Part shown: in pieces, positions 10,080 through 53,100 of the stretch
How the letters are laid out: the number at the start of each line of letters is the position of its first letter
How positions within the stretch are numbered: position 1 is the first letter of the stretch
Made by a program: the position numbers and the translations under genes
Assembly (NCBI GenBank): GCA_041498515.1
Contig: JBGQIO010000001.1
Location: forward strand, 1 to 54,482
Reading direction: 5' to 3'
Source: Anaerolineae bacterium
GTDB lineage: Bacteria; Chloroflexota; Anaerolineae; Anaerolineales; Villigracilaceae
Length of the DNA stretch: 54,482 nt
Notes under the pieces: generated by a model
Told to the model about the DNA's origin: nothing
Database searches by the model: none
The model's input: the letters and a program-made list of their open reading frames with translations, nothing else

Positions 10080-10420
10080 CTTCGCCCGTCTCCATACTCA
10101 ACGCAGAACATTACTTATGGGGTGATTCATGCGATGGCTGGCTTTTGCTCAAGCGCGAGGATGTCAGCGTGATCCAGGAGCGCGCGCCTGCGGGCCATGC
10201 AGAAGTGATGCATTACCATCAAATCTCGCGGCAATTCTTCTTCATCCTCGAAGGCCAGGGGAAGATGGTTTACAAGGATCAAAGCGTGACCCTGCGAACG
10301 GGGGAGGGGTTGGAAATCCCACCCGGCGTCCCCCATCAATTTACCAACCGATCGCAAAGTGAAGTCCATTTCTTAGTTATTTCCGTCCCTAAAACTCAAG
10401 GGGACAGAATAAACCTATGA
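10076..10420 (+). CDS. Cupin domain protein
   Basis: 114 aa with the two-motif cupin signature H.H....E (HAEVMHYHQISRQFFFILEG) and a GxPH block (PPGVPHQFTN). ATGA overlap with ttuA. Confidence 0.75.
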   Translation: MTSPVSILNAEHYLWGDSCDGWLLLKREDVSVIQERAPAGHAEVMHYHQISRQFFFILEGQGKMVYKDQSVTLRTGEGLEIPPGVPHQFTNRSQSEVHFLVISVPKTQGDRINL

Positions 10421-11697
10421 ATCCCATCGTCATTTCGAAACAGACTGCCAGACGGTTCGTGCTCGGGCGTCAGGGTTTGTGGCCAGGCCGACGCTGGAAA
10501 GGAAAGCAGGGAACAGCACAAGCTCTCCGTACCTGCGAAGCAATTCAACTTGACCCTTTGACCGTGATTGCACGCAGTCAGGATATTGCGCTCCACAGTC
10601 GCGTCTTGGATTACAAACCCGAATATCTTTATCAAGTAATGTATGAGGATCGTGAATTTTTTGATTACGGCGGTCACTTGAATGTATATCCCATGTCCGA
10701 GCTCCCTTATTGGCGGAACCATATGGAGAGGCGAAGTCACGATAAGCGCGTAGAAGATTATGTGTTTACACATGCGGGTCTATTCGACCAGGTTCGTGCG
10801 GAATTGGCACAGCGCGGCACATTAGGGAACCGCGATTTTCAAGGGAATTCCGTCGGTGCGTGGAACTATCGCGGGCGGAAGGATACATCGTTGGCGATGT
10901 ACGATATGTGGTTATCAGGCGAGCTGATGATCCATCATCGCGTGGGTTTTCAACGCTATTATGATTTTCGTGAAAATATTGCCCCAAAAGAATTTGATTC
11001 TATAGCCTCTGAGAAAGAGACCGAAGATTTCTTTGCGCGCAAATGTATAGCCATCAAGGGGTTGATGAACGAAGGAAGATGGAAAACCGATCTTGGGTAC
11101 TACCTGCACCGCACGATCGGGCTTGAAGAAATGAGGGAACGACTAGGATGCTCGATCGAGCAGGGGCTGGTTGCGCGGCTCAGGGTTGAGGGAAGCGATG
11201 ATAAATTCCTGATATTGTGCGAAGATCTTCCCAAGATTGAATCCCTCCAGGCTGGCAGGATCCCCAAAGTTTGGAAACCGATCCGACCGACCAAACAGGA
11301 TGAAGTCAGTTTTCTGGCGCCCCTGGATATTGTCAGTGCACGGGGACGGGCGAACAAGCTGTTTGATTTCGAATATCTGTGGGAGGTTTATAAGCCCATC
11401 CATCTACGCCGTTGGGGATACTACACCCTTCCGATTTTATACGGTGATGAGCTTGTAGCGCGGCTTGACCCAAAACTAGATCCTTCAACTATGACCCTGC
11501 AGATCAATGGCTTTTGGCATGAAGACGATGCGCCTGTTAAAGACCCCGGCTTTGTGAGAGCGCTGGCTCTTGGATTGATACGTTTGGCAAAGTTTGTGGA
11601 AGCTGGGAAAATAGATTTGGCAACAATCCAGCCTCCACGAATGCGAACGGAAATTAAGAACCTCATCAAGGGCGCTTCGGAGATAATTGTAAAATAA
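10417..11697 (+). CDS. Winged-helix DNA glycosylase-like protein, YcaQ/AlkZ family (DUF1006)
   Basis: ARRFVLGRQGL...AQALRTCEAIQLDPL...IARSQDIALHSRV is typical of the N-terminus of this family. ATGA overlap with the cupin gene. Confidence 0.7.
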   Translation: MNPIVISKQTARRFVLGRQGLWPGRRWKGKQGTAQALRTCEAIQLDPLTVIARSQDIALHSRVLDYKPEYLYQVMYEDREFFDYGGHLNVYPMSELPYWRNHMERRSHDKRVEDYVFTHAGLFDQVRAELAQRGTLGNRDFQGNSVGAWNYRGRKDTSLAMYDMWLSGELMIHHRVGFQRYYDFRENIAPKEFDSIASEKETEDFFARKCIAIKGLMNEGRWKTDLGYYLHRTIGLEEMRERLGCSIEQGLVARLRVEGSDDKFLILCEDLPKIESLQAGRIPKVWKPIRPTKQDEVSFLAPLDIVSARGRANKLFDFEYLWEVYKPIHLRRWGYYTLPILYGDELVARLDPKLDPSTMTLQINGFWHEDDAPVKDPGFVRALALGLIRLAKFVEAGKIDLATIQPPRMRTEIKNLIKGASEIIVK

Positions 11698-11771: not shown

Positions 11772-11811
11772 ATAAACCGGCGGTTGGTTGAGGTTCCAAC
11801 CGCCGGTTTAT
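11772..11811. terminator. Bidirectional intrinsic terminator between convergent genes
   Basis: ATAAACCGGCGGTTGG / CCAACCGCCGGTTTAT is a 16-bp stem flanked by an A-run and a T-run. It sits between the ycaQ-like gene (plus) and glnA (minus). Confidence 0.7.
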
Positions 11812-11824
11812 CCTTCTTTAATAG

Positions 11825-13162
11825 TTATGCTGCTTCTAGATAACGTTCGATCTCATAATCACTCACGCGCAGGCGGAAATCATCCCACTCTTCCCACTTA
11901 GCGCGGGTGAAGGCTTCGTAGGTGGTCTCACCCAGGGCGGATTTCACGACATCATCTTTCTCCAATTCATTCAGCGCTTCAGCGAGAGAACCCGGCAGTT
12001 CATGAATACCCATCTTGATCCGTTCCTCTTTATCGAGATGATACAAATTGACGTTGTTGAGAGGTGCAGGCGGCGTCAGGCCTTTCTCAATGCCATCCAG
12101 CCCGGCGGCCAGTATGGCGGCGAAGGCCAAATATGGATTTGACGATGGATCCGGGAAGCGGAGTTCGGCGCGCACGGCTTTATCGCGGCCTTCGGTGTAG
12201 CGCGGAATGCGGATCAATGCGGAGCGATTCTGCTGCGCCCAGCCGATATAGACGGGGGCTTCGTAACCGGGAACGAGACGCTTGTAAGAGTTGACCGTGG
12301 GGGCCACGACTGCGGCCAAAGCACGGGCGTGCACCAACTGTCCGGCAATAAACGAGTAAGCAAGCTTCGATAGATGTACTTCATCTTTCGGATCGAAGAA
12401 CAGGTTGGAACCTTTCTTATCGAACAATGACTGATGGCAATGCATGCCGGAGCCGTTGATGCCAAAAACCGGCTTAGGCATAAATGAAGCGGTCAATCCG
12501 TGTTGGGCGGCGATGGCTTTGACCGTGTATTTCAAAGTTAAAACATTATCTGCCGTCTTCAGCGCATCTGCAAAGCGGAAGTCAATCTCATGCTGTCCGA
12601 GAGCCACCTCATGATGGCCAACTTCCACCTCGAGTCCCATCATATCGAGTGAATCCATCAATGCCGTACGCACGTGCGCGGCTTCGTCATCGGCGGAGAA
12701 ATCGAAATAACTGCCGGTATCGTGAGGCACCGGATGGACACCTTCTCCGTTCATGCCTTTAAATAAGAAGAATTCAGGTTCCGGGCCGACGTTATAAACC
12801 CAGCCGCGGTCGTCCAATTTGGAAAGAATTCGCTTTAACGTGCCGCGTGGATCACCTTCAAAGGGATCGCCCTTTGGAGTTAAGATGTCGCAGAAGATGC
12901 GAGCACGCCGTAAATCGGACGACGTCCAGGGTAGGACGGCGTAAGTCTCCGAGTCGAGGATCAACAGCATGTCGCTTTCCTGAATACGGGCGAAGCCCTC
13001 TACCGAGGAGCCGTCAAACCAAACGCCATCCTTGAGCGCGCTCTCCAAACCATTGATGGGCATATCCACGCTCTTTACTGCTCCGGTGACGTCGGAAAAT
13101 TGCAACGAAACGAACTTGACGTTATCATCCTTTACCCGCTTGAGCAATTCGATTGAATTCAT
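11825..13162 (-). CDS. glnA: Glutamine synthetase, type I
   Basis: VKFVSLQFSDVTGAVKS..., FDGSS, NGSGMHCHQS, and the ATP site KPVFGINGSGMH. I chose the start at MNSIELL (13162), which has GAGG 8 nt upstream. The 54-codon upstream extension of the ORF looks non-coding. Confidence 0.9.
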   Translation of the reverse strand: MNSIELLKRVKDDNVKFVSLQFSDVTGAVKSVDMPINGLESALKDGVWFDGSSVEGFARIQESDMLLILDSETYAVLPWTSSDLRRARIFCDILTPKGDPFEGDPRGTLKRILSKLDDRGWVYNVGPEPEFFLFKGMNGEGVHPVPHDTGSYFDFSADDEAAHVRTALMDSLDMMGLEVEVGHHEVALGQHEIDFRFADALKTADNVLTLKYTVKAIAAQHGLTASFMPKPVFGINGSGMHCHQSLFDKKGSNLFFDPKDEVHLSKLAYSFIAGQLVHARALAAVVAPTVNSYKRLVPGYEAPVYIGWAQQNRSALIRIPRYTEGRDKAVRAELRFPDPSSNPYLAFAAILAAGLDGIEKGLTPPAPLNNVNLYHLDKEERIKMGIHELPGSLAEALNELEKDDVVKSALGETTYEAFTRAKWEEWDDFRLRVSDYEIERYLEAA

Positions 13163-13346
13163 ATTTACCTCTTTTCGTTTTTCAGTATCGATGAAAACAA
13201 TTTCAGTAGTGTATATTTTCATCTTGCAAAAGATCTCGGCAGGACACTTGGAGAGGCCTTTTGCTATTACCAAATCCTTCCTTGATCCAGAACAATGTTT
13301 CTTTTTCTGCCAAACTCGGTTCAATTATATTTCATCAATGCCTCTC

Positions 13347-14276
13347 TTACTCCGCTATGGGTGTTGCGGCTTCTTCCACTTGAATGATCTTTGCCTGCTT
13401 CGATAAGTTAATCACACCCACCGAACCAATTATGACCAGCGCAGCGATGATGATGCGACCGTTTATTAACTCATTTCCGATCCAAGCGCCTACAAAGATA
13501 GCCACGACAGGATTGACGTAGGCGTAGGTAGAGACAAGTGAGAGCGGAGCATTCCTCAGCAACCAGACGTAGGAAACGAACCCAACCAAGGAGCCAAAAG
13601 TGACGAGGTAGGCCAACCCAAGCAGAGAATTGCTTGTAATTGACGCGAGATCCAGCGACCGCCATTCGCCCGTTAAAGTCCCCACCAGGAAAAGACCCGC
13701 CGCGCCGCCGAGCATCTCCATGCCAGTGCTTAACAATGACGATTCGGGCATATCCGCATCACTGCCATAGACTGAGCCGATGGACCAGAGTAGGGAAGCC
13801 AGGATCAGCGCGCCAATGCCAAGCGGATTCATTCCCTCGGAAGCGCCGTCGCTCTTTGTCGAAGTGACCAGCAAGGCAATGCCGCCAAAACCTACCAGCA
13901 ATCCAAGAACGATTTTCCAATCAGGTTTTATTCCCTTGGGACGAAGGGTGTCTATCAATACCATCCACAGAGGCACCGAGGCGATCATCAACGCAGCAAT
14001 GCTTGAAGCCACATGCTGCTCTGCCCAACTGACCAGTCCGTTGCCCCCCAATAGGAGAAGCAGACCTACGATGAGCGCCGAGCGCCACTGCCGCGGTGTT
14101 GGGCTAGGGTCACCGACCAACCGACGCCAGACATACAAGATCAAACCTGCGACCAGAAAGCGCGTCCCTGCCATCAGGAATGGAGGAATCGTCCCCACAG
14201 CGAACCGGATCGCCAGATAGGTCGAACCCCAGACGATATAAATTGCTAAAAGTGCAGCCCAAACTTTGACCTTCAT
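13347..14276 (-). CDS. EamA/DMT superfamily transporter
   Basis: 309 aa, about 10 TM segments, and a duplicated EamA pattern. Confidence 0.85.
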   Translation of the reverse strand: MKVKVWAALLAIYIVWGSTYLAIRFAVGTIPPFLMAGTRFLVAGLILYVWRRLVGDPSPTPRQWRSALIVGLLLLLGGNGLVSWAEQHVASSIAALMIASVPLWMVLIDTLRPKGIKPDWKIVLGLLVGFGGIALLVTSTKSDGASEGMNPLGIGALILASLLWSIGSVYGSDADMPESSLLSTGMEMLGGAAGLFLVGTLTGEWRSLDLASITSNSLLGLAYLVTFGSLVGFVSYVWLLRNAPLSLVSTYAYVNPVVAIFVGAWIGNELINGRIIIAALVIIGSVGVINLSKQAKIIQVEEAATPIAE

Positions 14277-14305: not shown

Positions 14306-15184
14306 CTACAGTCCAGTATTAAATGCGGCAAGCTCGCTAACCAGCAGCGCTTTCTTGCGGGCTGTCCCATATCTATAATTTCCAAACTCACCCATCTTGC
14401 GGATGACGCGGTGGCAGGGGATGAGCACGACAATCGGGTTGTGGGCTACCGCGGTCCCAACCGCCCGGGTCGCGCCTGGTTGTCCTATTTCCTTTGCGAT
14501 GTGCTCGTAGGTGGTCACACTTCCAGTTGAGATGTGCATTAGTGCTTCCCAGACTTTGATCTGGAAGTTCGTGCCGCGCAAGTACAAATGCAAAGCGTGT
14601 TCCCCGCGCCGGTGCATGTCAAAGATAGGCTCGATGAGCGGAGCTGTGGCACTGTAATCTTCGATCATCTTCGCCTGCCTCCAGTTTTCGACCAGCTCGT
14701 CCAAGGCGTCGGCTTCACTTGTTTGAATAAAACCGAGCTGACAGATACCTCGTTCCGTAACTCCGATCAGACACTTTCCAAAGGGCGTTGCATGCAAGCC
14801 ATAGCGAATTGTAAGCCCTACGCCTCGGCTCTTATATTCGCCGGGTGTAACGGCCTCTGTGGTGACGAACAAGTCATGTAAACGGCCCAAACTCGAAAGT
14901 CCGACTTGGACCGTAGTGTCCAATAGATTCTCGGATCGGTCAAGTAGCTGCTTCGCGTTTTCCCTGGTCAGGAATTGCAGAAACCGCTTGGGGCTAATAC
15001 CCGCCCAGCGTGTGAACAGGCGCTGGAAGTGGAACTCGCTTAACCCGACTGCACCCGCAACCTCACTCAACTCAGGCTGGTTGTGTGCGTTCTTTTCAAG
15101 ATACAAGATGGCCTGCTCGATGCGCAGGTAATCCTCATTCAACTGGCGATAATCTGTGACAGTGATATTCATGTGAGCCTCCAA
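14306..15184 (-). CDS. AraC-type HTH fused to methylated-DNA--protein-cysteine methyltransferase (Ada/Ogt-like)
   Basis: N-terminal AraC HTH (LSEVAGAVGLSEFHFQRLFTRWAGISPKRF). C-terminal MGMT active site IPCHRVI with a helix-turn-wing. Confidence 0.85.
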   Translation of the reverse strand: MEAHMNITVTDYRQLNEDYLRIEQAILYLEKNAHNQPELSEVAGAVGLSEFHFQRLFTRWAGISPKRFLQFLTRENAKQLLDRSENLLDTTVQVGLSSLGRLHDLFVTTEAVTPGEYKSRGVGLTIRYGLHATPFGKCLIGVTERGICQLGFIQTSEADALDELVENWRQAKMIEDYSATAPLIEPIFDMHRRGEHALHLYLRGTNFQIKVWEALMHISTGSVTTYEHIAKEIGQPGATRAVGTAVAHNPIVVLIPCHRVIRKMGEFGNYRYGTARKKALLVSELAAFNTGL

Positions 15185-15309
15185 TGATTTAATTACTCAC
15201 ATTTTATAGATATTTGTCGCAAAGGGCTACCCGATTCTTGCTCAATTGGCATAGAATGTGTCACCGTTTTTGTGAAACTCCGAAAGAATGAGAAAGGGGT
15301 GAAAATAAA

Positions 15310-15336
15310 CCAAAAAGGCACGCCTGGGCGTGCCTT
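15310..15336 (-). terminator. Intrinsic terminator closing the glmS-like RNA transcription unit
   Basis: The minus strand reads AAGGCACGCCCAGGCGTGCCTT followed by TTTGG, so the U-run lies only on the minus strand. Confidence 0.7.
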
Positions 15337-15364
15337 CTCAATAGCAATATGCTAATTAATAGAG

Positions 15365-15650
15365 CAGCCCTTCCATTTCTAACAGGCCTGGATCAAAAAT
15401 ATTTTGACCCGTTCACCGCGCCCGCCTTGTCTCACATGTTGCCATGTGGTTTTCGGCGGCGAGCAACAGAGTTTTTTAAACTGCTGCTCCTTGCGCTTTC
15501 TTTGGAAGGGAGAAGAGAGTCTGTGACAGACTCCAGAGGCATCCGCTGATCTATCCGATTTTTTCCCGTCAACCGGGATTAGCGCGTCCTTCGCGGGACG
15601 GAACCTCCACCTCGTGATCTCATTTTGCAATGAGACCCAGCCGCTATTTC
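15365..15650 (-). ncRNA. glmS-ribozyme-like structured RNA (candidate)
   Basis: The minus strand carries these blocks in order. A|GCGGC at 15645|15644. A 9-bp hairpin capped by GCAA (15616-15637). ACGAGGTGGAGGTT (15602-15615). GCGGATGCCTC (15536-15546). Hairpin GAGTCTG-TCA-CAGACTC (15517-15533). Hairpin CACATG-GCAA-CATGTG (15433-15448) followed by GAGACAAGG (15425-15433). These match my memory of the glmS core blocks AGCGCC, GACGAGGnnGGAGGUU, GCGGAUGCCUCC and GACAAAG. The three GNRA loops exist only on this strand. No CM search was run. Confidence 0.55.
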
Positions 15651-15678
15651 TCCGTTATTCAATTGTAACTTGCGGGTG

Positions 15679-15707
15679 ATTGTACACGCGCAATATAGAC
15701 TCGTCAA
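15679..15707 (-). promoter_or_regulatory. Sigma70-like promoter for the glmS-like RNA
   Basis: The minus strand has TTGACG (15707-15702), a 17-nt spacer, then TACAAT (15684-15679), about 35 nt upstream of the putative cleavage site. Confidence 0.5.
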
Positions 15708-15785
15708 GGCAGGCAGGAATAATAGGTGAGTTGCCAACACTCAGCCTCGTAGATATGATAAGTCATATTCGCCTCGGAGGTATGT

Positions 15786-17234
15786 ATGAAACCTGCACAT
15801 TCGATTCAAGATTATCTAGGTGTCATTCGCAACGGGATCCCTGCACCAGCTATGGATGGTCAAAGGAATGCAGGTCGACGGAAGAAGGTAGTGATCGTCG
15901 GAGCGGGTGTCGCCGGACTTGTTGCCGGCTATGAATTAAAACGCGCCGGTCACAACCCGGTTATCCTCGAAGGCCAGCAGCGCGTGGGAGGCCGCGTTTA
16001 TACGCTTCGCCAGCCCTTTACAGAGGGACTGTATGCAGACGTCGGTGCGATGCGTATCCCGCGTGCTCACCTACTTACGCTGGAATATATCGCGAAGTTT
16101 GGTCTCAAGACCAATGACTTCACAATGGACAATCCCAACGCATATTATTATATAGGCGGACAAAAGATCCGGATTGCAGAGGGGAATGCCAACCCTTCTT
16201 TGCTTGGTTTCGATGTGTCAGACGAGGAGAGAGGCCACACGGCGGGAATGTTGTGGATGAAGACCATCCGTCCGCTGCTCGATATATTGGAGAAAGGCGG
16301 AGAGGCTGCCTGGGATGAAATAGTCTCCAGGTATGACCAGTACTCCACCCGCGAATTTCTTGAAGCAAATGGGTGGTCTGAGGGTGCGATCGAGATGTAC
16401 GGCTTGGTCGCCAACCAGGAAGCGGTAATGAACTCATCCTTCCTTGAAGTATTCAGGGAAGACTCGGGAAACTACTACACCAACATGGTCGAGATCCAGG
16501 GCGGCACCGATCGTTTACCGCACGCTTTTCTGCCTGAACTCAAGGATCATATCCGTTTCGGCGCCAAAATGATCGCTATCGATCAATCGCCGGATGAAGT
16601 AACCATCCATTATCAAACTGCGGCAGGACGATTTAAGGAGACAGGTGATTATGCAATTATCACCATACCATTCCCGGTCCTGCGTCATGTTGAAGTGCTC
16701 AAGCCTTTCACGCGCGCCAAACAACGCGCCATCCGTCAACTGCATTATGACGCCTCCGCCAAGATTCTCTTCCAATGTAAACGTCGTTTCTGGGAGGAAG
16801 ATGAGGGCATCTTTGGCGGTGGGACAATGACGGATTTACCCATTCGCAATCTTTACTATCCCGATCATGGACGGGAAACCGGGCGGGGTGTGATCCTGGC
16901 CAGCTACACCTGGTCGGAGGATGCGCAGCGCTGGGGTTCGCTCTTTCATCATGACCGTATCGAGCAGGCGCTGGAAGATGTAGCACAGATCCATCCTCAG
17001 ATCAATCAGGAATTCGAAGTCGGCGCGTCGTGGATGTGGCACGATGACGAGTATGCGGGCGGCGCCTTCGCGTTATTCGACCCCGAACAGCAAACATTAT
17101 TGTACGAACCGATCATTGCCCCGGAAGGACGCATCCATTTTGGAGGCGAGCATACCTCGCTGCACCATGCCTGGATCCAGGGCGCCATTGAATCCGGATT
17201 GCGAGAAGCAATTGCCATCCATCAGGCCCCGTAA
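15786..17234 (+). CDS. FAD-dependent amine oxidase, L-amino-acid-oxidase-like
   Basis: Dinucleotide fold VVIVGAGVAGLVAGYELKRAGH...LEG..RVGGRV; an N-terminal DYLGVIRNGIP resembling the LAAO N-terminal helix; C-terminal FGGEHTS...WIQGAIESG. Confidence 0.8.
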   Translation: MKPAHSIQDYLGVIRNGIPAPAMDGQRNAGRRKKVVIVGAGVAGLVAGYELKRAGHNPVILEGQQRVGGRVYTLRQPFTEGLYADVGAMRIPRAHLLTLEYIAKFGLKTNDFTMDNPNAYYYIGGQKIRIAEGNANPSLLGFDVSDEERGHTAGMLWMKTIRPLLDILEKGGEAAWDEIVSRYDQYSTREFLEANGWSEGAIEMYGLVANQEAVMNSSFLEVFREDSGNYYTNMVEIQGGTDRLPHAFLPELKDHIRFGAKMIAIDQSPDEVTIHYQTAAGRFKETGDYAIITIPFPVLRHVEVLKPFTRAKQRAIRQLHYDASAKILFQCKRRFWEEDEGIFGGGTMTDLPIRNLYYPDHGRETGRGVILASYTWSEDAQRWGSLFHHDRIEQALEDVAQIHPQINQEFEVGASWMWHDDEYAGGAFALFDPEQQTLLYEPIIAPEGRIHFGGEHTSLHHAWIQGAIESGLREAIAIHQAP

Positions 17235-17309: not shown

Positions 17310-17705
17310 CGATAAAGGATATGGATAATACAGACCCCGCCTGTGCCGTGTAATGCTAGGTTTTGAACCTGCTTTCGCAGGTGGGCTCCGACCCGGAAAC
17401 TCCGCCTTGGCTCTAGCCTATCGCGTCGTTCCTGAAAGATGGAAGCCCTTGTTATAAGTGTTGGCTCAAAACGGGAGTGCAATATCGCGAACACCGCAGG
17501 GTGAAAAACTTATACCATGAATCATATTGAAGAGGGGAGGGAAAGATTAAACTACGCCTTTCTTAAAGCTTATAAAAACGTAAGGTTTTCGAAAAGGAAA
17601 AATTCAGACTTTAAGAGGTCAAACAATTTCCCATTGCTTTTGTCCACATTTTGTGCTAACCTTTTAGGGTTGCCATTTTGAATCCAGCGAAAATAGGAGG
17701 AACCT

Positions 17706-18692
17706 ATGACCACTGTGCCTGGGATCGACGTTTCCTATTGGGATTCGGGGATTGATTGGCCCAAGGTCCGTGCCACGGGGCAACGCTTCGTCTTTGTCAA
17801 AGCAAGCGAAGGAGAGACCTATGCAGACCCGACCTTCGAGACCAACTGGGTCGGCGCCAAAACCAGTGGGTTATTGAGAGGGGCTTATTGTTTCTTTCAT
17901 CCAAACCAAGACGGGAAGAAGCAGGCGGATCGCTTTATTAGTGTTGTAAAAGCCCTCAACGATAATGGTGAGTTACCTACGGTCCTCGACCTGGAAGTGC
18001 CGGATGCAACTCCCAAGGATAAGATCATTGCCAAGGCCAAGATCTGGCTCGATGAAGTTGAGCAGGCCTTTGGCCGCAAGCCAATCATTTATTCAGGCGT
18101 CTCATTCCTTGAGACCAATTTCTCTGAGTTGGGCGGCGGTCCGCCTGTCTGGGTTAAAGATTATCCGTTTTGGGTGGCGTGGTACCCCAATCAATATACT
18201 CCGGGGATGAGTCCGTTGATGCCGCAAGGCTGGTTCAATTGGACCTTTTGGCAATATTATGACAAAGGATACCTCAACGGCATTAATACGAAAGTTAACC
18301 TTGACCTTTTCAATGGGGCACTGGATGATCTTTATAAATTTGCAGGTGTACAGGTGACTGACCAGACACCTAGTTCACACACCGTTGCCGCAGGTGATTC
18401 ATTCGAGACGATCGCGAATAAATATGGCGTTACGGTCCGTGAGCTGGTAGGAGCCAATCCGCAGCTTATAAAGATCAGCGACAAATTGACGGTACCGACC
18501 CCTGTCGCCATCCCACAGGAAGGTGCTCCAGGGGCTGCACCAGCTCCAAAGCAGACGTATACCGTCCAGCGCGGCGACACACTTTATTCAATTGCCATCA
18601 AATTTGGTACGACCGTTCCACAATTGGTATCCGCAAATAACATCGCTAATCCTAATTTGATCCAAGTCGGTCAAGTGCTGGTGCTCCCTTAA
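17706..18692 (+). CDS. GH25 muramidase (lysozyme) with two C-terminal LysM domains
   Basis: [13 protein letters not shown]...FVFVKASEG...DPTF is a GH25 N-terminal block. The two LysM repeats are [18 protein letters not shown]... and [18 protein letters not shown].... No signal peptide is visible. Confidence 0.9.
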
Positions 18693-18812: not shown

Positions 18813-21386
18813 TCAGGGTAGCAACCTCAAATGCCCTTCAGACTGTGCCTCAATTGATCCTTGATCCCATAACATCGGATAATATTGAATATTGGACCAA
18901 AGACGGGACATATCAGCGTAATGCCGGTTATAGGCGTGGCCGGACTCGCCGGTGGTGTGGACGGTGAGCGAGTTGGTCAGGTTGCTCATATCGACGATCA
19001 TGCGCATGGATGGCAGCCAGTTTGTCTCGTATCCGTCCACTACTGACCAGCCCGTTGCATCGATGATCGCCTCGCCGCCGCCAACCGGGAAAGGACCGCG
19101 GTTGAACAGATCCTCGATCAGGCCGACGCCGGATTCACCCAGCGTTTGATTCCGGAAAGTAGCGGCGTGCATATCGCCCCAATTCCATTTAGCGGGATCA
19201 CTGCCGAACATTCCATCGAGTTCTTTTACCGCATCCGCCAGTGATTTCTTCAAGATGTCGGCCTCGGTCTCGACCACGATTTTCGTGGATTTGTCATCCC
19301 AGAATGGATCGTTTGGATTCTTGACCAGGTTGCGCATCACTTCGTTCCAACGCGAGCCTCCGTCAGGCCAATAATCTTTAGGCAGGTCATCGTCGAAGGT
19401 GTTTTGTAGAAGGTGACGCCAGAAAGATTCAAAAATAGCCGCGGCGGAGGAATCTGGTCTCGCCTGGAAGTCCCACGTCTTGAGCAGGTTGAACGCGGCG
19501 GATTGATCTCCGCTGAATAAACCTTCCAGTTTCAGGAGCAGGGGTACAAAAGTTGCAGCGTTCGCATCGTACATGTCGCCCTGCATCTTTTGAATATATG
19601 AGATATCAATCTTGCCCGGGGCGTTCTTGATCAAGTCCACAATGCGGTTGGCGCGGTAGCCATAATCCCAATCAGCCGTAATGAGATAAGGATAACCCGC
19701 CGGCGGTATTTCGTTGTTGGCTGTTGCGATATAGCCCTCGGCAGGATTAAAAGTGTAAGGCAGTTGGTCGAAGGGGATGAAGCCAGTCCAATCGTATATC
19801 CCGGTCCAGCCTGGCACCGGGTAGCGCCCATCGCCATTTTTGCGGATGGGCACATCACCGGGCATTTGATAACCAATGTTACCCTGTGTGTCTGCATATA
19901 AAAGATTCTGAGCCGGCACGTGGAAGTTCCGTGCGGCTGCCCGGAATTGATCCCAGTTCCGGGCTTTGTCAAAACCCCAGATCGCTTCGAAAGGGCTGGA
20001 AGGGTTGAGCGCAGTCCAGGCTAACGCGAGCACATAATGCTCAGGCAAAAAGACACCTGACTGTTTTTTGAAAGGAATAAAATCAGGGACGTTATCAGTA
20101 TTCGTGTCTTTCAACGGACCATACGTATCCGAGATGACCGGCCCGTGGCGCGTCGAGTGCACGGTGATCTTAACAGGTTTATCGCCGACTACATTTATGG
20201 TCTCCGTGCGGATCTGGAAGTCAACCCATTTGCCGTCAGCTTCGTATTGATTGGGGTTTTCGGGGTTGACCTTTTCAATGAATAAGTCCATCACATCCGG
20301 ACCGGTGTTGGTGAATCCCCAGGCGATGTTCTCATTGTGACCGATGATAACCCCCGGCACACCTGCGAAGGAAAAACCGCCCATTTCATATGGGCATTGA
20401 TCGTTCTTCGGAAGGCAGTGCATATCGACCTGATACCAAATGGAAGGCATCTGGATGCTGAGGTGCGGATCGTTGGCCAGGATAGGCAGGCCCGTCGTGG
20501 TATGCGCACCGGATATCGCCCAGGAATTGGAACCTATTCCGTCACCCTGCCGGCCCAACGCACCGTCCAGTAAGGATACGTTCTGTTGGATGGCGTCCAG
20601 GGCGTAGTCAGGAACTATAGGTGTCTCAGATGTTGAACCTTTCAAAGCAGAAGAGGCTGTGCCATTACCGATCTTGTTGACAATGAGGGGATGATCGGGA
20701 GGATAGGGCGGGAAGAGCTGGTCAACCTGCTGGGCTGTAAGGGTTTTTAGCAAGACGGCGCGTTCGATCTCTTCATCCATATTGCCGCGCAAGTCCCACG
20801 CCATCGCCTTGCCCCAAGTAAGGCTGTTCACAGGAGTCCACGGCACGATCTTGTAAGCCGGGCTAAGCAATCCAAGAACGGCATATTCGAGGCTGAGTGA
20901 CGCACCATTATGATCTTCGAGATAGGCATTGACACCGTCAGTGTAAGCCTGCAGGATGGACTTCGACTCTGGCCCCATACCGTCCCATTCAGCTTGCGCC
21001 ACTTCGCGCCAGCCAAGCGTGCGCAGGAACGCATCGGTTTCCACCTGACCTTTGCCAAACATCTCGGAAAGCGTGCCGGAACCGATATGCCGCCAGGCAT
21101 CCATCTGCCAGAAGCGATCCTGGGCGTGGACGAAGCCCTGCGCATAGAACAGATCGTGCAAAGTACTAGCGTATATATGCGGGATACCCATCTTGTCGCG
21201 ATAGACATCCACCGGGCCATCCAGACCTTGCAAATGGATCACACCGTCAATCTGCGGGAACGATCGGGGTGCGACGGCATTGGGCAGATAACTCTTGAAA
21301 TAGAAAAGCCCGCCTGCCGTGAGCAGAAGGGCGATGATGACCACTCCAATTAGTAAACGACTCAGGACATTGCGTGCCTTTTTCAT
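18813..21386 (-). CDS. Penicillin acylase family (S45 Ntn-hydrolase; penicillin amidase / acyl-homoserine-lactone acylase type)
   Basis: 857 aa with an N-terminal TM anchor, DKMGIPHIYA...AQGFVHAQDRFWQMD, and a putative nucleophile site GSNSWAISG. Confidence 0.9.
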   Translation of the reverse strand: MKKARNVLSRLLIGVVIIALLLTAGGLFYFKSYLPNAVAPRSFPQIDGVIHLQGLDGPVDVYRDKMGIPHIYASTLHDLFYAQGFVHAQDRFWQMDAWRHIGSGTLSEMFGKGQVETDAFLRTLGWREVAQAEWDGMGPESKSILQAYTDGVNAYLEDHNGASLSLEYAVLGLLSPAYKIVPWTPVNSLTWGKAMAWDLRGNMDEEIERAVLLKTLTAQQVDQLFPPYPPDHPLIVNKIGNGTASSALKGSTSETPIVPDYALDAIQQNVSLLDGALGRQGDGIGSNSWAISGAHTTTGLPILANDPHLSIQMPSIWYQVDMHCLPKNDQCPYEMGGFSFAGVPGVIIGHNENIAWGFTNTGPDVMDLFIEKVNPENPNQYEADGKWVDFQIRTETINVVGDKPVKITVHSTRHGPVISDTYGPLKDTNTDNVPDFIPFKKQSGVFLPEHYVLALAWTALNPSSPFEAIWGFDKARNWDQFRAAARNFHVPAQNLLYADTQGNIGYQMPGDVPIRKNGDGRYPVPGWTGIYDWTGFIPFDQLPYTFNPAEGYIATANNEIPPAGYPYLITADWDYGYRANRIVDLIKNAPGKIDISYIQKMQGDMYDANAATFVPLLLKLEGLFSGDQSAAFNLLKTWDFQARPDSSAAAIFESFWRHLLQNTFDDDLPKDYWPDGGSRWNEVMRNLVKNPNDPFWDDKSTKIVVETEADILKKSLADAVKELDGMFGSDPAKWNWGDMHAATFRNQTLGESGVGLIEDLFNRGPFPVGGGEAIIDATGWSVVDGYETNWLPSMRMIVDMSNLTNSLTVHTTGESGHAYNRHYADMSRLWSNIQYYPMLWDQGSIEAQSEGHLRLLP

Positions 21387-53026: not shown

Positions 53027-53100
53027 CGGGGCGTGGCTCAGACCGGTAGAGCGCACGGTTCGGGTCCGTGAGGTCCCGAGTTCAAATCTCGGCGCCCCGA
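53027..53100 (+). tRNA. tRNA-Pro (anticodon CGG)
   Basis: Hand-folded cloverleaf. Acceptor CGGGGCG/CGCCCCG. D arm GCTC-AGACCGGTA-GAGC. Anticodon arm CACGG-TTCGGGT-CCGTG, giving anticodon CGG with G37. Variable loop AGGTC. T arm CCGAG-TTCAAAT-CTCGG. Discriminator A. No encoded CCA. Confidence 0.9.

Follow-up and report, generated by a model that had tools for sequence, protein, structure and literature searches.

What is an RNA resembling the glmS ribozyme doing in a stretch of DNA that carries no glmS gene? The question is posed by a 54,482-nt stretch from an Anaerolineae bacterium of the Chloroflexota (GenBank assembly GCA_041498515.1, contig JBGQIO010000001.1, positions 1 to 54,482; this whole stretch is hereafter the window), whose minus strand bears such an RNA between a promoter and an intrinsic terminator. 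A first-pass annotation had noted the likeness, together with the absence of a glmS open reading frame (ORF), and had suggested a stand-alone element: an orphan, a decoy, a relic of rearrangement or a repurposed variant with a different role. We propose, with a probability of about 0.62, that the RNA forms the 5′ leader of an operon for nitrogen assimilation, made up of an ada-like gene, eamA and the glutamine synthetase gene glnA, and that it belongs to a co-opted sub-lineage of Chloroflexota (mainly Anaerolineae) glmS ribozymes. The basis of this proposal is fourfold: homology, fold, a conserved gene association and a terminator module.

Homology to the glmS ribozyme

The Rfam glmS ribozyme model, RF00234, aligns to positions 15476-15656 over model positions 1-167 with a score of 19.2 bits (E = 0.032 on 701 nt) and a 53-nt insertion in the P2 loop. 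This match was obtained with permissive filters, and nothing was reported at the curated threshold; the Rfam comparison suggested in the first-pass annotation thus yields a full-length alignment, but one that scores below the gathering threshold of 37 bits. The low score is due to the 55-nt P2 insertion and a hairpin inserted in P4, misaligned by Rfam.

Relatives were collected with a pattern of two core blocks and a long spacer. A scan of one genome per bacterial or archaeal species returned at least 120 loci, and a scan of metagenome contigs at least 120 RNAs, 112 of 120 of which are not identical to the genome set; as the pattern needed an exact core and a long spacer, these family counts are lower bounds. 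In total, more than 240 loci share the same architecture, nearly all from Chloroflexota or unclassified metagenome contigs, and the taxa among the matches listed include Anaerolineaceae, Bellilinea, Levilinea, Leptolinea, Longilinea, Roseiflexus, Chloroflexaceae and Ardenticatenaceae. Against RF00234, glmS-linked relatives score 38.7-87.1 bits, copies before glutamine synthetase (GS) genes 28.9-43.8 bits, and one copy before a glutamate synthase (GOGAT) gene, L044, which has C at position 4, scores 44.8 bits. With scores of 29-87 bits among relatives, and with covariation in P1, in the insertion hairpin and in P3 and P3.1, homology to glmS ribozymes is solid, and sequence comparison identifies the window RNA as a diverged member of a family clearly homologous to them, in line with its original identification as glmS-ribozyme-like.

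A scan of the window region showed Rfam to be without a separate family for the RNAs that precede nitrogen genes (hereafter nitrogen-type). The glnA RNA model RF01739 gave no match in 15150-15850 at E up to 10, and none at gathering score across the window.

Fold of the RNA

All the glmS-like blocks that had been listed for this RNA, from A/GCGGC through to GAGACAAGG, could be located (Table 1). The core nucleotides A-1, G1, ACGAGG, GGAGG, UCG and GCGGAUGCCUC occur in order at 15645-15535 and are identical in 61 of 61 aligned relatives, with 25 core nucleotides identical across all copies, a conservation that is partly built in by a search pattern demanding the two exact core blocks. Position -1 is A in nearly all nitrogen-type copies (at least 80% in the profile), G-1 being seen in only L033, L114 and L121.

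For the 5′ domain, 61 sequences were aligned under a model comprising P1, P2, the insertion hairpin, P3 and canonical P2.2, which leaves 83% of cells paired. The covariation score is 0.400, compared with 0.195 ± 0.008 for shuffled alignments (0 of 500 as high) and 0.09-0.23 with partners slid. Compensatory changes occur in 7 of 8 pairs of P1 and in 7 of 7 pairs of both P2a and P3. P2a is paired in 97% of cells, the base pairs of P2b also covary, and the P2 helix forms in all 61 RNAs. The P2.1 strands (15612-15614 with 15556-15558) are complementary but invariant, so that no covariation is possible there. The alignment of homologous loci, a check proposed at the outset, thus supports P1, P2a and P3, as well as P3.1.

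The last of these required an anchored test, as a broad-window partner-swap test proved uninformative. In P3.1, as in glmS ribozymes, the partners are NNCAC in the P3 loop and a GUGNN located just 3′ of P4; pairs 4 and 5 covary (pair 4 is C-G in 36 RNAs and U-A in 29), and the pairing beats all 500 partner swaps. The window helix is limited to 4 bp, against 5-7 bp in relatives. Two further long-range helices, P0 and P5, are not part of the Rfam model. P0 joins the 6-9 nt just 5′ of the cleavage site to the strand that follows P3 on its 3′ side. Its native pairing energy is -8.5 kcal/mol, whereas swapping the partners gives -6.4 and shuffling the leaders -4.2, and it covaries across loci (for example GGGGAAGA/UCUUCCCC in L026). 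P5 (CCCUUCC/GGAAGGG) has a native energy of -15.6 kcal/mol against -13.4 when swapped; its variant in glmS-linked copies is CCCCUCC/GGAGGGG. In the glmS-linked Chloroflexota RNAs, the Shine-Dalgarno sequence of glmS shares nucleotides with the G-rich 3′ strand of P5 (CAGGAGGGAGACUCUAUG in L026, ~1360-1380), which suggests that occlusion of the ribosome-binding site is built into the fold of those ribozymes.

The minimum free energy (MFE) fold of the window RNA alone (-140.1 kcal/mol, z = -5.45) recovers nearly the whole comparative model, including the P4/P4.1 three-way junction. Some details of the first-pass annotation need revision. The RNA measures ~335 nt from cleavage site to terminator, or ~365 nt from its likely start, rather than ~290 nt, and P3 has 8 bp rather than 7. 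The long segment between GGAGGUU and GCGGAUG is indeed 55 nt with two hairpins, but it is common to Chloroflexota glmS-linked ribozymes and not peculiar to this copy. The description 'ORF-free' does not hold literally, as mechanical ORFs overlap the RNA, but because the hairpins vary in length and covary, a coding role is disfavoured. In L021, L027, L067, L080 and L247, P1 is expanded to 90-120 nt by low-complexity, repeat-like sequence such as GTCAGTTACTGATAACTGATTACTG.

Association with nitrogen-assimilation genes

The first downstream gene of each RNA was classed by blastx and Pfam; the counts that follow are of the matches listed. Sorting by the nucleotide at position +4 (G15641 in the window) separates two gene contexts. 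In the genome set, C4 RNAs precede GlmS (29) and fused glutamate synthase (5), whereas G4 RNAs precede GS (49), ada-like (9), EamA (1) and GOGAT (1), U4 RNAs GS (10), GOGAT (3) and an ammonium transporter (1), and A4 RNAs GS (2) and GOGAT (2). Taken together, the non-C4 RNAs of these species representatives stand before GS 61 times, ada-like 9, EamA 1, GOGAT 6, ammonium transporter 1 and GlmS 0. Metagenome contigs repeat the pattern. Their C4 RNAs precede GlmS (27) and fused GOGAT (1), and their G4 and U4 RNAs precede nitrogen genes (61), with one genuine U4 RNA before glmS (L245); the finder of cleavage sites is heuristic and made at least one error (L224), which was corrected by eye and is included in the 27, while L247 is unassigned.

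Across both sets, C4 is found in 56 of 57 resolvable glmS-linked and a non-C nucleotide in 139 of 145 nitrogen-gene copies, and in the genome set no core column other than +4 separates glmS-linked from nitrogen-linked RNAs without any overlap. No G4 or A4 RNA precedes glmS among the 240 loci listed. As an absolute marker of glmS, C4 was rejected, in view of the six C4 RNAs before fused glutamate synthase and the U4 RNA of L245. The five C4 glutamate-synthase cores of the genome set are glmS-like at every discriminating column, yet they carry the nitrogen-type terminator described below.

The window's gene order is itself recurrent: RNA, ada, eamA and GS follow one another in at least eight species (for example L012, L086, L088, L094 and L120), and ada-eamA also occurs in glutamate-synthase operons led by nitrogen-linked RNAs (L021, L034, L044, L059). 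One assembly, JASFUN01, has a copy before GOGAT and another before GS, and two other assemblies hold two nitrogen-type copies each, which is how the leaders of a regulon behave. Among the 120 matches listed for the genome set, no assembly has both a glmS-linked and a nitrogen-linked copy.

Within the window, the promoter upstream of the RNA, a 10/12 match to the sigma70 consensus at the place first described, is the sole consensus site on the minus strand from 15900 to the end of glnA. The scan thus failed to reproduce the separate promoter that had been ascribed to the ada-like gene, and it found no consensus promoter-like site on the minus strand between the RNA terminator and either the ada-like gene or glnA. 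No terminator-like site was found on the minus strand inside the ada-eamA-glnA cluster, the next strong hairpin beyond the RNA terminator (11772-11811) lying after glnA. By tblastn the window contains no glmS, GOGAT or amt gene, which agrees with the first reading as far as glmS is concerned, and it holds no second copy of the RNA core.

These data bear on the idea that the RNA is a stand-alone small RNA, acting in trans or as a decoy, with neighbours that are unrelated to it. It does have a good promoter and a strong terminator on either side, the next start codon lies 125-490 nt past the terminator in the window's clade, and a 6S RNA gene directly upstream in several loci shows that the region yields stable non-coding RNAs. 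We nevertheless regard this as very unlikely. At least 139 copies sit on the same strand directly upstream of GS, glutamate synthase, ammonium transporter or ada-eamA-glnA genes, so the window RNA is not an orphan; the terminator is mostly 10-80 nt from the start codon, too tight for another promoter; and the consensus scan of the window shows no promoter-like site from the terminator to the ada-like gene. The labels orphan, decoy and relic are not supported, while the fourth suggestion, of a variant repurposed for a different role, fits the association with nitrogen genes.

A conserved terminator module

The terminator, whose U-run is found on the minus strand only, as first described, had been taken for the end of an independent gene. 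It is instead a conserved module, usually 10-80 nt before the start codon of the nitrogen gene. The sequence of its stem is conserved as GGCAYGCC-loop-GGCRUGCC, and in the genome set this hairpin is found in 62 of 78 nitrogen-type and 5 of 5 C4 glutamate-synthase leaders, compared with 0 of 29 glmS leaders. The metagenome set replicates the result, with 44 of 64 nitrogen-gene leaders against 0 of 30 glmS leaders. The two strands covary (native -16.3, swapped -10.7 kcal/mol). A generic genomic terminator or repeat was rejected as an explanation, as the 54-kb window and each related locus contain a single such hairpin. In its layout, with an intrinsic terminator placed between a structured sensor and the ORF, the leader matches transcription-terminating riboswitches.

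No antiterminator partner for the 5′ strand of the terminator was detected, the best partners being scattered and no stronger than in shuffled sequence (-11.7 against -12.2 kcal/mol). Pairing of the leader with the tail or terminator, a candidate link from cleavage to termination, was rejected, being as strong in swapped as in native combinations. A family-wide anti-P2.2 helix, in which the cleavage-site strand would pair with the GCUGCU/CAGCYGC tail, is absent in U4 RNAs and stands only 0.6 sd over shuffled tails. Pairing of the cleavage strand with GCUGCU is present in the window MFE fold and in many G4 copies, and may be a feature of that subtype only.

The terminator could instead be the target of a nitrogen-responsive RNA- or DNA-binding protein, recognising the GGCAYGCC hairpin or another part of the leader, with the ribozyme core serving as a scaffold or a processor of the transcript, for example to free 6S RNA. 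Such protein-dependent attenuation would suit a stem conserved beyond the needs of termination while other stems drift, the lack of a detected RNA antiterminator, and the 6S gene found 28-68 nt upstream in L043, L124, L013 and L088. It is, however, an improbable account: it comes with no candidate protein, the catalytic core shows the strict conservation of genuine glmS ribozymes, more than a scaffold would demand, and most copies are without an adjoining 6S gene (5 of the 18 loci scanned have one).

The altered P2.2 helix and the ligand

In the canonical ribozyme, P2.2 consists of C2-G56, G3-C55, C4-G54, C5-G53, a bulged A6 and G7-C52, and mutations are tolerated least in the three pairs that adjoin the cleavage site (Andreasson et al., PMC7125110). 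The window RNA has C2-G56 and G3-C55, and its G4 faces G54 in a G-G mismatch; the GCGGC that had been pointed out in place of GCGCC is thus a real deviation. Among the 61 aligned RNAs, +4 and 54 are unpaired in 33, form U-G in 7 and C-G in 21. A possible alternative register has G4 bulged, followed by C5-G54, U6-A53 and G7-C52; in the canonical ribozyme, a bulged position 4 with re-pairing rescues C4A ~24-fold (PMC7125110). U4 copies retain a U-G wobble.

As three different nucleotides replace C4, a weakened or shifted third pair is favoured over a specific new contact. That C4 cores head glutamate synthase genes and one U4 core heads glmS argues that the same ligand can serve both regulons. 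On these grounds we consider glucosamine-6-phosphate (GlcN6P), or a compound close to it, acting with altered tuning, more likely than a new ligand.

The same position lends itself to a second interpretation, namely that the glmS scaffold was kept while the altered P2.2 remodels the pocket for another metabolite of nitrogen status, such as glutamine, glucosamine or another amine. Position +4 splits the classes almost perfectly and belongs to the three P2.2 pairs by the active site, where mutations harm most; in addition, glnA, gltB-like and amt genes are those classically under glutamine control, and glutamine is what the known nitrogen riboswitches sense (PMC9971707). We consider a re-specified ligand unlikely, in that replacement by G, A and U alike looks like loss or weakening of a pair, the other active-site and pocket positions (C28-A30, U43-G45, C2-G56) are unchanged, and C4 cores also occur at glutamate synthase and one U4 core at glmS. 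A wider claim, which we hold to be unlikely, is that the nitrogen-type RNAs form a new functional class derived from the glmS ribozyme, in which the weakened C4-G54 pair leads from a pre-folded, GlcN6P-dependent ribozyme either to the sensing of a different metabolite of nitrogen status or to a conformational or terminator-based switch. If true, they would represent the first cofactor-dependent ribozyme in nature to have acquired both another ligand and another regulon, and they would act in cis as the master regulator of the ammonium-assimilation genes glnA, gltB and amt in Anaerolineae.

Proposed mechanism

For the favoured reading, a GlcN6P-type ribozyme leading a nitrogen operon, we infer the identity of the ligand, cleavage, the decay of cleaved mRNA, the direction of regulation and the mode of overcoming the terminator in the following form. 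Transcription would begin near 15672, the likely start, and the leader would fold into a glmS-type double-pseudoknot core (P1, P2, P2.1 and a re-registered P2.2), braced by P3/P3.1, P4/P4.1 and the extra long-range helices P0 and P5. A small amine metabolite reporting nitrogen sufficiency, with GlcN6P the most likely candidate, would bind the core and bring about self-cleavage between A15645 and G15644. Many transcripts would end at the conserved terminator (15312-15338), while those that read through would carry ada-like, eamA and glnA. A cleaved read-through mRNA would present a 5′-OH end and decay, as for glmS mRNAs, which are destabilised after cleavage (summarised in PMC5473149). Plentiful nitrogen metabolites would in this way lower the expression of glnA and its companions, a cis-acting repression.

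Several points weigh against this account. On its own, the C4G change is called 'highly detrimental' to the canonical ribozyme (PMC7125110), so that cleavage by the G4 copies may be weak or absent. The terminator stem is conserved in sequence beyond the needs of termination, and no antiterminator partner was detected for it. With 125-490 nt from terminator to first gene in the window's clade and ~185 nt between eamA and glnA, internal non-consensus promoters may exist within the window operon. Finally, the sequences are phylogenetically related, so that the counts above represent non-independent events, and the core conservation is in part a product of the search pattern, as stated.

Organisation of the window

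Features of the RNA and its operon are collected in Table 1.

Table 1. Positions of the predicted RNA elements and downstream genes, in order of transcription
Feature	Position	Strand	Basis
Sigma70-type promoter: TTGACG (15702-15707), 17 nt, TACAAT (15679-15684)	15679-15707	-	Consensus scan, 10/12 matches
Helix P0, 5′ strand GGAGAA (leader); pairs with UUCUCC 15509-15514	15648-15653	-	Partner-swap test
Predicted cleavage site A15645/G15644 and P2.2 5′ strand G1-C2-G3-G4-C5-U6-G7; +4 = G15641	15638-15645	-	Aligns to AGCGCC of RF00234
P1 hairpin GGUCUCAUU-GCAA-AAUGAGAUC, 9 bp, GCAA cap	15616-15637	-	Covariation; recovered by MFE fold
Core block ACGAGG-U-GGAGGUU; P2.1 5′ strand CGA, P2 5′ strand GGAGG	15602-15615	-	Matches RF00234 consensus GACGAGGAgGaGguU
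P2-loop insertion hairpins P2a (15583-15601) and P2b (15564-15578)	15564-15601	-	Chloroflexota-specific expansion
Core 3′ strands AAUCG (P2.1 UCG 15556-15558) and CAGCG (P2.2, 15544-15548)	15535-15560	-	Aligns to RF00234 gCGGaUGcCuCc
Core block GCGGAUGCCUC (15536-15546); P2 3′ strand CCUCU (15535-15539)	within 15535-15560	-	Aligns to RF00234 gCGGaUGcCuCc
P3 hairpin, 8 bp; loop UCAC (15523-15526) = P3.1 pseudoknot 5′ strand	15516-15534	-	Covariation
Pyrimidine-rich strand: UUCUCC (P0 3′, 15509-15514) overlapping CCCUUCC (P5 5′, 15504-15510)	15504-15514	-	Swap tests, MFE
P4 domain: 5′ strand GCGC (15493-15496) + GCCGCC (15455-15460); 3′ strand GGCGGGCGC (15418-15426)	15418-15496	-	Canonical order, MFE
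Inserted P4 hairpin, loop UUUAAAAAACU	15461-15489	-	Clade-specific; common to L012, L059, L088, L094
P4.1 CACAUG-GCAA-CAUGUG; junctions GAAAAC and AGACAA	15433-15448	-	GCAA-capped; order as in canonical glmS P4/P4.1 (Rfam alignments)
Block GAGACAAGG	15424-15432	-	Located in sequence
P3.1 3′ strand GUGA	15413-15416	-	Anchored covariation test
Distal hairpin P6 (15390-15410); P5 3′ strand GGAAGGG (15368-15374)	15368-15410	-	MFE, swap test
Tail: GCUGCU (complementary to cleavage-site strand, G4 subtype only); small hairpin 15342-15354	within 15309-15367	-	
Intrinsic terminator, U-run on minus strand only; AAGGCACGCC-CAG-GCGUGCCUU + U-run at 15312-15338	15342-15309	-	Terminator scan
ada-like gene, AraC-HTH/MGMT	14306-15184, likely start ~15172	-	Pfam
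EamA transporter gene eamA	13347-14276	-	Pfam
Glutamine synthetase glnA	ORF 11825-13324, likely start ~13162, i.e. 11825-13162	-	Pfam

GS homologues have 445 amino acids and start with MNSIELL (~13162 in the window). The N-termini of the mechanical glnA ORF (499 aa) and of the annotation of the metagenome-assembled genome (482 aa) are thus probably over-extended, and because homologous proteins start there, some 185 nt between eamA and glnA (13163-13346, minus strand) are non-coding. The ada-like protein fuses an AraC-type helix-turn-helix (HTH) to an O6-methylguanine methyltransferase (MGMT) domain with an intact active site (IPCHRV). The ada-eamA pair travels within RNA-led nitrogen operons, before glnA or GOGAT or after GOGAT (L021, L034, L044, L059, L012, L086, L088, L094 and L120), and a protein of DNA-repair type is an unexpected constant passenger of ammonium-assimilation operons.

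A motif, TAYAATTGAAYA (window 15657-15668, minus strand), is kept ~13-24 nt 5′ of the cleavage site in most nitrogen-type leaders. Similar strings, ATATAATTGAAC and GCCAATTGAGC, lie upstream of the window glnA (~13315-13325) and the ada-like gene (~15226-15236), both on the minus strand. Nitrogen-regulated genes could use the motif as an operator or a promoter element.

A 6S RNA gene lies upstream on the same strand in the window (17330-17505, minus strand) and in L043 (6014-6189), L124 (168-343), L013 (3424-3600), L088 (4886-5063), L059 (3831-4007) and L012 (481-659). In the first four of these relatives (L043, L124, L013, L088) the gap to the RNA is ~28-68 nt, which leaves no room for a promoter, so that 6S, ribozyme and glnA are probably co-transcribed there; self-cleavage would then separate 6S from the glnA mRNA. 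In the window, an amine-oxidase gene (15786-17234, plus strand) stands between the 6S gene and the ribozyme-like RNA. Other neighbours, with no obvious relation to the RNA, are genes for an AlkZ-like DNA glycosylase (10417-11697, plus), a GH25 lysozyme with LysM repeats (17706-18692, plus) and a penicillin-amidase family protein (18813-21386, minus), and a tRNA (53027-53100, plus).

Comparison with known systems

The nitrogen-type RNAs share with the glmS ribozyme RF00234 the order of blocks (A/GCG.., P1, ACGAGG-GGAGGUU, UCG, GCGGAUGCCUC, P3, P4/P4.1 and the P3.1 pseudoknot), the GAAAC and ACAAGG junctions, alignment to the full-length model and a position at the 5′ end of an mRNA. They differ from it in that they precede glnA, gltB-like, amt or ada-eamA genes and not glmS, in having G, A or U at +4 in place of the C4-G54 pair, and in adding helices P0 and P5 and a sequence-conserved terminator. 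The two-hairpin insertion of 34-64 nt in the P2 loop also departs from RF00234, and is common to the glmS-linked copies of Chloroflexota too.

To our knowledge, the glmS ribozyme is the sole natural ribozyme with a metabolite cofactor. Variants from Deinococcus-Thermus with extra core stems and an altered periphery were reportedly described by McCown, Roth and Breaker in 2011 (RNA 17:728), in a survey said to have placed all but two of 463 representatives in glmS mRNAs. Those variants are reported still to belong to glmS mRNAs; the Chloroflexota nitrogen group has another regulon and an added terminator. Reviews of 2017 and 2022 describe the glmS ribozyme class as regulating glmS only, and name only glutamine and guanidine riboswitches as nitrogen-control RNAs (PMC5473149, PMC9971707). 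Full-text literature searches found no description of a glmS ribozyme at glnA, glutamine synthetase or an ammonium transporter, or in Chloroflexi or Anaerolinea, and the nitrogen-type subgroup is apparently undescribed before.

Anaerolineae abound in digesters, in sediments and in wastewater, and their genetics has hardly been studied. A large, conserved sub-lineage that heads ammonium-assimilation genes, its active-site helix altered and a conserved terminator of its own added, would extend glmS-ribozyme biology to nitrogen control and open a first way into nitrogen regulation in these bacteria. There is also a practical consequence: because automatic annotation will label some of these RNAs 'glmS riboswitch' (38-44 bits pass the threshold) and miss others, regulon predictions for Chloroflexota are misleading.

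In function, the nearest counterparts are the glutamine-I and -II riboswitches (RF01739 and relatives), which likewise act in cis to control the expression of glutamine synthetase and further nitrogen genes according to nitrogen status (PMC9971707). They differ in having an unrelated, small three-stem fold, in occurring in cyanobacteria and marine bacteria, and in lacking self-cleavage. In evolutionary terms, the parallel is with variant riboswitches, such as 2′-dG-II derived from the guanine class and the PRPP and ppGpp classes derived from ykkC, where a few core changes track a switch of the associated genes (PMC6847200, PMC6031431). In those variants the changed nucleotides touch the ligand and a new ligand is proven, whereas in the nitrogen-type RNAs the changed nucleotide lies two pairs from the pocket and has three alternatives. 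They would offer a natural experiment in the re-tuning or re-specification of a ribozyme-riboswitch, with ~140 natural sequences set apart from the glmS-linked ones mainly by a single base pair.

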